A DNA stretch of 64,000 bases from the NCBI RefSeq assembly GCF_029227855.1, contig NZ_CP074356.1, one strand, 5' to 3'. The notes beneath the pieces were generated by a model. That model saw nothing but the letters and a program-made list of their open reading frames with translations. It ran no database searches and had not been told where the DNA came from. The position numbers and the translations under genes are program-made. Positions 5,627 to 27,199 of the stretch are shown here, piece after piece; position 1 is the first letter of the stretch, and the number at the start of each line of letters is the position of its first letter. This DNA is from Escherichia coli (GTDB taxonomy: Bacteria; Pseudomonadota; Gammaproteobacteria; Enterobacterales; Enterobacteriaceae).

Positions 5627-6487
5627 ATGAGTCAGGCGCTAAAAAATTTACTGACATTGTTAAATCTGGAAAAAATTGAGGAAGGACTCTTTCGCGGCCA
5701 GAGTGAAGATTTAGGTTTACGCCAGGTGTTTGGCGGCCAGGTCGTGGGTCAGGCCTTGTATGCTGCAAAAGAGACCGTCCCTGAAGAGCGGCTGGTACAT
5801 TCGTTTCATAGCTACTTTCTTCGCCCTGGCGATAGTAAGAAGCCGATTATTTATGATGTCGAAACGCTGCGTGACGGTAACAGCTTCAGCGCCCGCCGGG
5901 TTGCTGCTATTCAAAACGGCAAACCGATTTTTTATATGACTGCCTCTTTCCAGGCACCAGAAGCGGGTTTCGAACATCAAAAAACGATGCCGTCCGCGCC
6001 AGCGCCTGATGGCCTGCCTTCGGAAACGCAAATCGCCCAATCGCTGGCGCACCTGCTGCCGCCAGTGCTGAAAGATAAATTCATCTGCGATCGTCCGCTT
6101 GAAGTCCGTCCGGTGGAGTTTCATAACCCACTGAAAGGGCACGTCGCAGAACCGCATCGTCAGGTGTGGATCCGCGCAAATGGTAGCGTGCCGGATGATC
6201 TGCGCGTTCATCAGTATCTGCTCGGTTACGCTTCTGATCTTAACTTCCTGCCGGTAGCTCTACAGCCGCACGGCATCGGTTTTCTCGAACCAGGAATTCA
6301 GATAGCGACCATCGACCATTCCATGTGGTTCCATCGCCCGTTTAATTTGAATGAATGGCTGCTGTATAGCGTGGAGAGCACCTCGGCGTCCAGCGCTCGC
6401 GGCTTTGTGCGCGGTGAGTTTTATACCCAGAATGGCGTGCTGGTTGCCTCGACCGTTCAGGAAGGGGTAATGCGTAATCATAATTAA
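5627..6487 (+). CDS. tesB: Acyl-CoA thioesterase II
   Basis: 286-aa product [31 protein letters not shown]...; start at internal ATG 5627. Confidence 0.93.
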
Positions 6488-6526
6488 AAAAATAGCCGGA
6501 GGTGAAAACCGTCCGGCTGTTTTTTG
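6485..6526. terminator. Bidirectional rho-independent terminator between convergent tesB and amtB
   Basis: Inverted repeat AGCCGGA (6494..6500) / TCCGGCT (6512..6518), flanked by an A-run upstream and GTTTTTTG downstream. Confidence 0.7.
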
Positions 6527-6535
6527 CAGTGCTTG

Positions 6536-7822
6536 TTACGCGTTATAGGCATTCTCGCCGTGGCTGTTGACGTCCAGCCCTTCTCGCTCCTGTTCTTCAG
6601 GCACACGCAGACCAACCGTCAGATCCGCCAGTTTGTAGCCAATAAACGCCACCACACCGGACCAGACAATCGTAATGGCAATGCTTTCCAGCTGTACCAG
6701 CAACTGATGGCCCATCGTCACACCTTCAGCGAAGCCCACGCCGCCCAGCGAGCTGGCGGCAAAAATCCCGGTCATGATACAGCCGACAATGCCACAAACG
6801 CCGTGCACACCAAAGACATCGCAGGGATCATCCACCCGCAGCAAGCGTTTGAGCATGGTAACGCCCCACAAGCCCGCTAGACCCGCTACCACGCCGATAA
6901 TCAACGCGCCGCCAACACCAATGTAGCCACAGGCTGGCGTCACGCCGACCAGACCGGCAATCGCGCCAGAACACGCTCCCAGCAGTGAAGGCTTTCCGCG
7001 CAGCGCCCATTCACCGAAGATCCAGCCAAGAATTGCTGCCGCCGTTGCGACCACAGTATTCACAAATGCCAGTGCCGCGATTTCATTCGCCGTGCCCGCT
7101 GACCCGGCGTTAAAGCCAAACCAACCGATATAGAGAATGGCAGTCCCGGTGAAGACCATCGGCAGGTTGTGCGGTTTAAACGCCTCTTTACCGAAGCCCA
7201 CGCGTTTGCCTATCAGATATGCGCCCACCAGACCGGCGATTGCGGCGTTAATGTGCACCACCGTGCCACCCGCGAAATCCAGCGCACCGTGAGAAGCCAG
7301 CAAACCACCGCCCCACACCATATGCGCAATCGGAATGTAGGAGAGCGTCAGCCATACCACCACGAAAATCAACACAGCTGAGAAGCGGATTCGTTCCGCC
7401 AGCGCCCCAACTATCAAGCCTACGGTAATGCAGGCAAACGATCCCTGAAACGCTACGTGGATATACTGATAAATGCTGCCCATCACCGCCGTCAGTTCGA
7501 TGTTTTTCAGCATCAGCCAGTTAATGTTGCCGAAGAAGTTGTTGCCCTCACCAAACGCCAGCGAGTAACCGTAAACCACCCAGAGAATACAGACCAGTGC
7601 AAACGTCACCGTCACCTGCGTCAGCATCGACAGCACGTTTTTGCCGCGAATCAACCCACCGTAAAACAGGGCAATCCCCGGAATAGTCATAAACAGCACC
7701 AGCGCAGTACAGATCATCATAAACGCATTGTCGGCTTTATCGGCCACCGCAGGTGCAGCCATTACCAGTCCCGGCAGCATCGCCAGTGAAGCAAGCCCAG
7801 TTTTTATCGTCGCTATCTTCAT
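6536..7822 (-). CDS. amtB: Ammonium transporter AmtB
   Basis: 428-aa polytopic membrane protein with signal peptide; recognised as AmtB; directly downstream of glnK. Confidence 0.95.
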   Translation of the reverse strand: MKIATIKTGLASLAMLPGLVMAAPAVADKADNAFMMICTALVLFMTIPGIALFYGGLIRGKNVLSMLTQVTVTFALVCILWVVYGYSLAFGEGNNFFGNINWLMLKNIELTAVMGSIYQYIHVAFQGSFACITVGLIVGALAERIRFSAVLIFVVVWLTLSYIPIAHMVWGGGLLASHGALDFAGGTVVHINAAIAGLVGAYLIGKRVGFGKEAFKPHNLPMVFTGTAILYIGWFGFNAGSAGTANEIAALAFVNTVVATAAAILGWIFGEWALRGKPSLLGACSGAIAGLVGVTPACGYIGVGGALIIGVVAGLAGLWGVTMLKRLLRVDDPCDVFGVHGVCGIVGCIMTGIFAASSLGGVGFAEGVTMGHQLLVQLESIAITIVWSGVVAFIGYKLADLTVGLRVPEEQEREGLDVNSHGENAYNA

Positions 7823-7851
7823 TTTTCGTTCCTGTTGCTGTGTGCCAGAGA

Positions 7852-8190
7852 TTACAGCGCCGCTTCGTCGGCTTCGCCGGTACGAATACGAATGACGCGT
7901 TGCAATTCAGCGACGAAGATTTTGCCGTCGCCAATTTTTCCGGTGTAAGCCGCCTTACTGACGATATCGATCACTTCATCGAGTTGGTCATCAGCAATCG
8001 CCACATCAATTTTTACTTTTGGCAGGAAGTTGACGCTGTATTCCGCTCCCCGGTACAGCTCGGCATGCCCTTTCTGACGCCCGAAACCTTTCACTTCGGT
8101 GACGGTCAGGCCCTGAATACCAATGGAAGATAACGCTTCACGAACGTCTTCCAGCTTGAATGGTTTGATTATCACGGTCACCAGCTTCAT
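7852..8190 (-). CDS. glnK: Nitrogen regulatory protein PII-2 GlnK
   Basis: 112-aa product MKLVTVIIKPFKLEDVREAL...; start at internal ATG (reverse complement of cat at 8188..8190). Confidence 0.93.
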   Translation of the reverse strand: MKLVTVIIKPFKLEDVREALSSIGIQGLTVTEVKGFGRQKGHAELYRGAEYSVNFLPKVKIDVAIADDQLDEVIDIVSKAAYTGKIGDGKIFVAELQRVIRIRTGEADEAAL

Positions 8191-8242
8191 AGATCCCCTC
8201 CGGTCAGAATTCGGTAATGGTTCTGCTACACGAAGAAGGTAT

Positions 8243-8258
8243 TGCAAGCGGTGTGCCA
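8243..8258 (-). promoter_or_regulatory. Sigma-54 (RpoN) -24/-12 promoter of glnK-amtB
   Basis: Minus strand reads TGGCAC-ACCGC-TTGCA, a match to the TGGCAC-N5-TTGCA consensus, about 50 nt upstream of the glnK start. Confidence 0.65.
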
Positions 8259-8370
8259 GAAATGAAAAACGAGAAAGAGAGCAGGAAGTTAAGAAGATTG
8301 AAAATGAAAACGCACTATGACAGTGCACAGTGCGTTACATTTTTGCACCAACGATGAAATATTGCGCTAT

Positions 8371-11917
<3,547 letters not shown>

Positions 11918-16427: not shown

Positions 16428-18873
<2,446 letters not shown>

Positions 18874-24220: not shown

Positions 24221-24356
24221 ATAACAATCTTTTGTTGTTACGCTAACACCGAAAGAGGCTTTTCGCACGGTTCCATGCAAAATTCATGACAAAAAAAAGC
24301 CCACCACCTGGCGGTGACGGGCCTTTGTGCGAATTTAGCGCGTTATGCTGCGTAAA

Positions 24357-26620: not shown

Positions 26621-27199
26621 ATGTTCAAAAAAATCCTCTTCCCGTTAGTTGCTCTGTTTATGCTTGCAGGATGCGCAAAACCGCCAACAACTATTGAAGT
26701 TTCACCGGCGATGACACTGCCACAGCAGGATCCAAGCCTGATGGGCGTCACCGTAAGCATTAATGGTGCCGATCAGCGTACCGATCAGGCGCTGGCAAAA
26801 GTCACCCGCGATAATCAAATCGTTACCCTGACCGCCTCCCGCGATCTGCGTTTCCTGCTGCAAGAAGTGCTGGAAAAACAGATGACCGCGCGTGGTTACA
26901 TGGTCGGTCCGAATGGCCCGGTTAATCTGCAAATCATCGTTAGCCAACTGTATGCTGATGTGTCCCAGGGCAACGTGCGCTATAACATCGCGACCAAAGC
27001 GGATATCGCCATCATCGCTACCGCGCAGAATGGCAACAAAATGACCAAGAACTATCGTGCCAGCTACAACGTTGAAGGTGCGTTCCAGGCCTCCAACAAA
27101 AATATCGCCGATGCGGTTAACAGTGTGCTGACCGATACCATCGCTGATATGTCTCAGGACACCAGCATCCACGAATTCATCAAGCAGAACGCGCGTTAA
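26621..27199 (+). CDS. yajG: Lipoprotein YajG
   Basis: 192-aa product MFKKILFPLVALFMLAGCAKPP... (signal peptide plus lipobox LAGC); start at internal ATG 26621. Confidence 0.88.
   Translation: MFKKILFPLVALFMLAGCAKPPTTIEVSPAMTLPQQDPSLMGVTVSINGADQRTDQALAKVTRDNQIVTLTASRDLRFLLQEVLEKQMTARGYMVGPNGPVNLQIIVSQLYADVSQGNVRYNIATKADIAIIATAQNGNKMTKNYRASYNVEGAFQASNKNIADAVNSVLTDTIADMSQDTSIHEFIKQNAR

Follow-up and report, generated by a model that had tools for sequence, protein, structure and literature searches.

The sequence at 8259..8243 on the minus strand is almost certainly glnKp, the promoter at which transcription of the glnK-amtB operon depends on sigma-54 and is activated by NtrC. Here and below, the window means the whole stretch of Escherichia coli DNA that was analysed, 64,000 nucleotides in length, and coordinates refer to it unless a genome accession is given. 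This result is correct, already known and ordinary: glnKp is a textbook example of a promoter under NtrC and sigma-54, and is routinely used to report NtrC activity. As a finding it holds nothing new, and what it offers here is a positive control for the scan.

Organization of the glnK-amtB Locus

The window derives from the E. coli chromosome, matches many complete genomes with 100% identity and carries annotated mdlB, glnK and amtB genes. Their equivalents in MG1655 are b0449 (mdlB), b0450 (glnK, 472598..472936) and b0451 (amtB), with tesB lying convergent to the operon. For a window position w, coordinates were converted as U00096.3 = 472598 + (8190 - w) and U00096.2 = 471822 + (8190 - w). 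The features discussed below are as follows.

6536..7822, minus strand: amtB coding sequence, encoding a 428-aa ammonium transporter, the second gene of the operon
7852..8190, minus strand: glnK coding sequence (b0450; RefSeq 'P-II family nitrogen regulator'), encoding the 112-aa PII-2 protein
8191..8230, minus strand: 5' UTR of glnK, with the Shine-Dalgarno sequence GGAGGGG at 8201..8195
8231, minus strand: mapped transcription start (G), 41 nt before the glnK ATG (Cho 2014)
8243..8259, minus strand: sigma-54 -24/-12 promoter element CTGGCACACCGCTTGCA, identified from sequence, position-weight matrix, ChIP-seq and genomic SELEX motif, and conservation
8299..8336, minus strand: terminator-like hairpin from a terminator scan, with stem arms AACGCACTGTG and CATAGTGCGTT around the loop CACTGT and the tail TTCATTTTCA; it overlaps both putative NtrC dyads
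8311..8327, minus strand: putative proximal NtrC dyad (site A), TGCACTGTCATAGTGCG, matching the consensus TGCACCAnnnTGGTGCA at 10/14 positions; centre 8319, about -88
8331..8347, minus strand: putative distal, weaker NtrC dyad (site B), TGCAAAAATGTAACGCA, matching TGCACCAnnnTGGTGCA at 9/14 positions; centre 8339, about -108
8371..8373, minus strand: stop codon of mdlB, the upstream limit of the 180-bp regulatory spacer

The original prediction had placed the glnK start at 8190, in agreement with both the RefSeq annotation and the Shine-Dalgarno sequence. A 158-aa extension of glnK from a GTG codon, which appears in the list of open reading frames, is a mechanical product of that list; translation starts at the annotated ATG at 8190, which has the Shine-Dalgarno sequence in front of it.

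The spacer between mdlB and glnK is identical to that of MG1655 at 179 of its 180 positions, and an alignment of 272 columns likewise contained one difference. Compared with glnKp of E. coli K-12, the promoter motif, both putative NtrC dyads, the 5' UTR and the start codon are identical base for base; the two differ only in strain background, and the window is numbered in the reverse direction to MG1655. Of 5426 complete E. coli genomes, 5423 have the spacer, 4416 of them with at least 99% identity. The sole difference from MG1655 within it, at 8297 (T on the gene strand, A in MG1655), sits in T-rich DNA between enhancer and promoter, clear of all assigned sites.

The Sigma-54 Element and Its Position

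The sequence TGGCACACCGCTTGCA occupies 8258..8243 of the minus strand (within tcTGGCACACCGCTTGCAat at 8260..8241), with the GG of the -24 region at 8257/8256 and the GC of the -12 region at 8245/8244. These two dinucleotides are spaced 10 bp within TGGCAC-N5-TTGCW, as in sigma-54 promoters. The element has the same orientation as glnK and lies inside the 180-bp mdlB-glnK spacer, 52 nt upstream of the ATG at 8190. Thus, the earlier reading of TGGCAC ACCGC TTGCA on this strand was right in sequence, strand and coordinates. Its description as an exact consensus holds for the 11 core bases; by position-weight score, the site as a whole is average.

An exact match to TGGCAC-N5-TTGCA occurred once in the 64-kb window when both strands were searched. 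Dinucleotide shuffles of the window gave a mean of 0.10 exact matches, and 9 of 100 shuffles had at least one, so that finding such a match somewhere in the window is only mildly unlikely by chance. With up to two mismatches allowed, the 30 sites found were at chance level (27.8 expected). Given these rates, the match is meaningful mainly by its position, i.e., on the sense strand, within a spacer of only 180 bp and 52 nt ahead of the start codon; by our own scaling (0.10 x 180/128000), about 1e-4 sense matches would be expected within that spacer.

The original prediction had also suggested a position-weight scan for RpoN sites. We built a matrix of 17 positions from the 42 intergenic-sense motifs in Table 1 of Bonocora 2015, leaving out those of glnK and clpP (40 motifs). 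The glnK site scored 16.65 bits, tied for best in the window with a site at 16649..16665 on the plus strand, and third place went to a site upstream of clpP at 24276..24292 on the minus strand. All three have been found experimentally to be bound by sigma-54, which validates the matrix and bears out the use of the glnK promoter as an internal control. The score of 16.65 bits is mid-range, being exceeded by 18 of the 40 known motifs (range in the training set 8.7-21.8, median 16.1); this is because the bases between the two conserved blocks are G+C-rich (CCGC), where A/T-rich sequence is preferred.

A partial copy of the motif, CTGGCACAC, lies in the glnK-amtB spacer at 7850..7842 on the minus strand, and was rejected as an internal sigma-54 promoter since there is no -12 TTGC. 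The copy, in a spacer of 29 nt, shares the first nine bases of the promoter motif, with AACAG in place of the -12 TTGCA. Only close Enterobacteriaceae retain it, with degenerate versions elsewhere, and it is unlikely to act as a promoter.

Binding of Sigma-54 and NtrC, and the Transcription Start

Occupancy of the element by sigma-54 is established by published binding data. In ChIP-seq it is site OS03, with a peak at 471768 and a fold-above-threshold value of 18 (Bonocora 2015, PMC4591121, Table 1). The motif assigned to that peak is CTGGCACACCGCTTGCA, whose centre at U00096.2 471761 corresponds to position 8251 (PMC4591121). Genomic SELEX of the mdlB>glnK spacer yielded peaks with RpoN holoenzyme alone, with NtrC alone and with both (Shimada 2021, PMC8743547); the figures given for the peaks were 61% with RpoN holoenzyme and 56% with NtrC, and the same 17-mer, CTGGCACACCGCTTGCA, was listed (PMC8743547). 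Counting against the assignment is the status of the glnK promoter in EcoCyc in 2015, which was only 'predicted' (PMC4591121).

NtrC is present at this locus in nitrogen-starved cells, where glnK-amtB was peak 1 of an NtrC ChIP-seq study (471741-471821, 39.7-fold; Brown 2014, PMC4066584). In the same work, glnK mRNA was induced by nitrogen run-out and was not readily detected in a deletion of glnG, the gene for NtrC, establishing dependence on glnG (Brown 2014, PMC4066584). Schumacher 2013 (PMC3870243) described glnKp as a 'simpler' promoter, with an output exclusively dependent on activated NtrC. The expectation that glnK-amtB is expressed under control of NtrC and sigma-54 is therefore backed by ChIP-seq, SELEX, a mapped start and the effect of the glnG deletion.

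The start itself was mapped by enrichment of 5'-triphosphate ends at 471781 on the plus strand of the genome, with 1952 reads, in the transcription unit glnK;amtB (Cho 2014, PMC3923258, Table S6). The data sets of that study include growth on glutamine, a nitrogen-limiting source (PMC3923258). Taking the glnK ATG as U00096.2 471822 = window 8190, the start falls at 8231. We looked for any conflict between a mapped start and the element; a start at 8231 is consistent with it, being 13 nt 3' of C8244 in the -12 GC, where about 11-13 nt is expected, and 1 nt from the position, 42 bp before glnK (8232), that Bonocora 2015 (PMC4591121) had predicted by rule. The code for sigma binding and motif at 471781 is 'DN', i.e., sigma-70 plus sigma-54 (Cho 2014, PMC3923258). 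A TCGTGT block around the start (8233..8228) is largely conserved across genera, and in an alignment of nine genera the segment GAATTCTGAC(C/T)GGAGGGGATCTATG of the 5' UTR is strongly conserved.

Table S6 of Cho 2014 (PMC3923258) also contains weak starts inside glnK on the minus strand that are assigned to amtB, at 7939 (472073; 61 reads, code N), 7906 (472106; 87 reads, code D) and 7900 (472112; 37 reads, code D).

Conservation of the Promoter

A scan for GlnK with one genome per species provided 80 loci from diverse Proteobacteria. An amtB homologue was found downstream of glnK at 72 of these, and mdlB lay upstream in the same orientation at 14 of the 15 loci from Enterobacterales. A sense sigma-54 site scoring at least 14 bits was present no more than 350 nt upstream of glnK at 59 of the 80 loci; no site reached this score in the 80 antisense scans or in the 158 control scans inside amtB. 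Median scores were 15.4 for the sense strand, 3.3 for the antisense strand and 3.4 for the amtB controls. Within nine genera of Enterobacteriaceae TGGCA and TTGC were invariant, while the bases between them varied (ACACCGC, ATACTGC, ACGCCGC, ATGCCCC, ACAGGCT and others).

The orthologous promoter of Salmonella Typhimurium glnK-amtB (STM0462) resembles that studied here in position and in its motif, TGGCACATCCTTTGCAAT, and differs in the bases between -24 and -12, which are ATCCT rather than ACCGC as in E. coli. The Salmonella motif binds sigma-54, and its activity is sigma-54-dependent (Samuels 2013, PMC3844500). Activity of a lacZ reporter rose from 1.1 Miller units in standard (non-limiting) medium to 1778 under nitrogen limitation (PMC3844500). 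Dependence on rpoN was thus demonstrated with the Salmonella orthologue.

In the pseudomonads (Pseudomonas and Stutzerimonas, loci L017-L045) the best site lay about 160-240 nt upstream of glnK, compared with 43-88 nt in Enterobacterales, and the motif was almost fixed as (A/C)TGGCAAGCTTTCTGCT.

Putative NtrC Dyads and the Geometry of the Enhancer

Two half-site-like strings had been noticed upstream of the promoter, without being assigned with confidence. Both are real (GCACCA at 8345..8350 and TGCACAGTGC at 8324..8333, each on the plus strand), and they turn out to be parts of two putative 17-bp dyads, sites A and B, whose matches to the consensus are weak. Scores at this level are not rare, as 25 positions in the window had exactly 10/14 matches and 152 had exactly 9/14 (one strand); for this reason the dyads are not proven by their sequence alone.

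Their assignment draws on conservation and on binding data of low resolution. A dyad corresponding to site A occurs at all 15 Enterobacterales loci with 10-13 of 14 matches and free inner bases, and the alignment of nine genera shows no variation in TGCAC and GTGCG, the cores of its outer half-sites. The Enterobacteriaceae conserve TGGTGCA...CGCA within site B. Citrobacter, Enterobacter BIGb0383, Yersinia and Rahnella likewise have a second dyad, placed 20 bp upstream of site A. The centres of sites A and B are 20 bp apart, and at -88 and -108 both lie within the interval, about 80-150 bp upstream of the start, in which two or more NtrC sites, enough for oligomerisation, would be looked for. 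Because the NtrC peaks in ChIP-seq and SELEX lack base resolution, we infer rather than read directly the contact with site A; NtrC would be expected to bind at both A and B.

The arrangement resembles that of E. coli glnAp2, which has a -24/-12 element (TTGGCACAGATTTCGCT) and upstream NtrC dyads that act as an enhancer, and at which phosphorylated NtrC bound to the enhancer sites activates by oligomerisation. The sites of glnAp2 are centred at -108 and -140, whereas the dyads of glnKp are closer to the start (about -88 and about -108), are separated by just 20 bp and are weak matches to the consensus. Atkinson et al. are said to have put forward in 2002 the idea that glnK is activated only at high levels of phosphorylated NtrC; the weak dyad matches would fit such behaviour.

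By the general mechanism of sigma-54, the holoenzyme would be held as a closed complex at -24/-12, while phosphorylated NtrC would assemble on the dyads at 8327..8311 and 8347..8331, which, with their centres 20 bp apart, would lie on roughly one face of the helix. NtrC would then contact the polymerase by looping of the T-rich spacer DNA, and its hydrolysis of ATP would open the promoter. If opening is driven by phosphorylated NtrC in this way, the operon would be made only under nitrogen limitation.

A search with the IHF consensus WATCAANNNNTTR, allowing up to two mismatches, gave no match between enhancer and promoter. As far as the sequence tells, looping assisted by IHF was rejected on this basis, and a short loop of about 68 bp would have to form in some other way, a point against the model. 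Across genera, the centre of site A and TGGCA are separated by distances of five classes (61, 71, 92, about 104.5 and about 115 bp) that share a helical phase (R = 0.85; with a turn of 10.5 bp, Monte Carlo p = 0.017, and p ranges from 0.005 to 0.06 as the turn is set from 10.7 to 10.3 bp). With five classes and no phylogenetic correction, this result is suggestive only.

A further sequence, AGCGCCTGAATAGCGCA at 8363..8379 on the minus strand, runs across the stop codon of mdlB and agrees with the NtrC consensus at 9/14 positions, with its centre at about -140. Even E. albertii does not conserve it, and the match is probably due to chance.

Alternative Explanations of the Promoter

Might sigma-70 account for most transcription of glnK-amtB, whether initiated in the spacer or reading through out of mdlAB, with the sigma-54 element as an accessory? 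Both D and N binding and motifs are recorded at 471781 in Table S6 of Cho 2014, and mdlB is directly upstream on the same strand. Set against this, ChIP-chip is too coarse to separate the sigma-70 signal of neighbouring genes, mdlA;mdlB and glnK;amtB are separate units in that data set, and a terminator-like hairpin stands between mdlB and the promoter. A promoter scan of 7700..8500 found no sigma-70-like -35/-10 pairs. The loss of glnK mRNA in the glnG deletion also speaks against transcription by sigma-70, as does the Salmonella fragment, with its 1.1 Miller units when nitrogen was not limiting and for which the authors predict no sigma-70 promoter (PMC3844500). We regard a main role for sigma-70 as very improbable.

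That the motif is a chance match, or a sigma-54 site that is bound non-productively like many intragenic sites in E. coli, seems to us more remote still. Such a reading can draw on the exact core matches seen somewhere in 9 of 100 shuffled windows, and on the argument that many bound sigma-54 sites may never transcribe productively (Bonocora 2015, PMC4591121). However, the element points towards glnK, whose ATG is 52 nt away, its position is kept across genera while the flanking bases diverge, a start has been mapped 13 nt downstream of its GC, and the Salmonella reporter requires both sigma-54 and nitrogen limitation. The mapped start and the reporter data already contradict this reading.

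A Terminator-like Hairpin Overlapping the Dyads

The hairpin at 8336..8299 begins 34 nt past the mdlB stop and consists of a stem of 11 pairs, 5 of them G-C, with a 6-nt loop. The fold of an 81-nt segment had a predicted energy of -23 kcal/mol, with z = -3.2 relative to shuffles. A G+C-containing stem-loop past a stop codon, with a U-run immediately after it, is the architecture of an intrinsic terminator. The extended stem and a run of T4-8 were found in all nine Enterobacteriaceae compared, in which 91.9% of cells were paired. One of the 11 pairs had changed on both sides, being CG in five and UA in four, which is probably one event, confounded by selection on the NtrC half-sites.

We lean slightly towards the view that the hairpin and T-tract at 8336..8299 are not the mdlB terminator and are instead a by-product of adjacent, complementary NtrC half-sites, the T-run serving in DNA bending or having no role. 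Half-sites of the TGCAC and GTGCA types are complementary by nature, and the stem arms coincide with sequences that resemble NtrC half-sites. In Yersinia, Rahnella, Acerihabitans and Photorhabdus, site A occurs without the T-tract, and when we searched the mdlB-glnK spacers of Yersinia and Rahnella for terminator-like elements of any kind, none was found, which weakens the idea that a terminator is needed there. The compensatory pair separates E. coli, E. albertii and two Citrobacter from the other five, and may represent a single event that moved both sides towards the NtrC consensus. In addition, the supplements of Adams 2021 (PMC7815308) contained no 3'-end entry for mdlB or glnK. A text search of the literature returned no paper with both 'mdlB' and 'Term-seq'. 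An origin as a by-product fits less well with a stem that reaches past the dyad to 11 pairs, with T4-8 placed directly after the stem in nine of nine Enterobacteriaceae, with a hairpin 43-73 nt after the mdlB stop, and with a fold more stable than its shuffles (z = -3.2).

A genuine role of the predicted hairpin as the mdlB terminator is possible, and we put its chances at somewhat short of even. Going further, the glnK enhancer of Enterobacteriaceae might have a dual use, in which the DNA at 8347..8311 binds NtrC and the RNA from 8336..8299 terminates mdlAB, insulating glnK from read-through. Separately, the phase-keeping distances may reflect a face-of-helix constraint on a short, IHF-less NtrC loop; we consider this reading rather unlikely as a whole. 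If confirmed, dyads that overlap a hairpin, together with spacing that preserves phase, may be of note to those who study enhancer geometry.

An Rfam scan of 6000..10500 returned nothing at the glnK locus and two sub-threshold chance matches elsewhere. At 6440..6526 on the plus strand, a match to Thr_leader scored 24.4 bits against a gathering threshold of 55 (E = 0.2); lying at the convergent ends of amtB and tesB, it most probably reflects a chance resemblance of a terminator-like hairpin to this family.

Other Sigma-54 Sites in the Window

The site that ties with glnKp at 16.65 bits (16649..16665, plus strand; CTGGCATTATTAATGCT) is antisense inside ybaV, and corresponds to a low-stringency ChIP-seq peak, IA, at 463347 with a fold-above-threshold value of 4 (Bonocora 2015 Table S2, PMC4591121). 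In the third-best site by matrix score, TTGTCATGAATTTTGCA upstream of clpP (24276..24292, minus strand), GT replaces the -24 GG; this is the bound sigma-54 site OS02, with a peak at 455741 and a fold-above-threshold value of 5 (Bonocora 2015, PMC4591121). Finally, TCGGCACCATTAATGCT at 26756..26772 on the minus strand is an exact match to the intragenic antisense site IA04, inside yajG (Bonocora 2015, PMC4591121).
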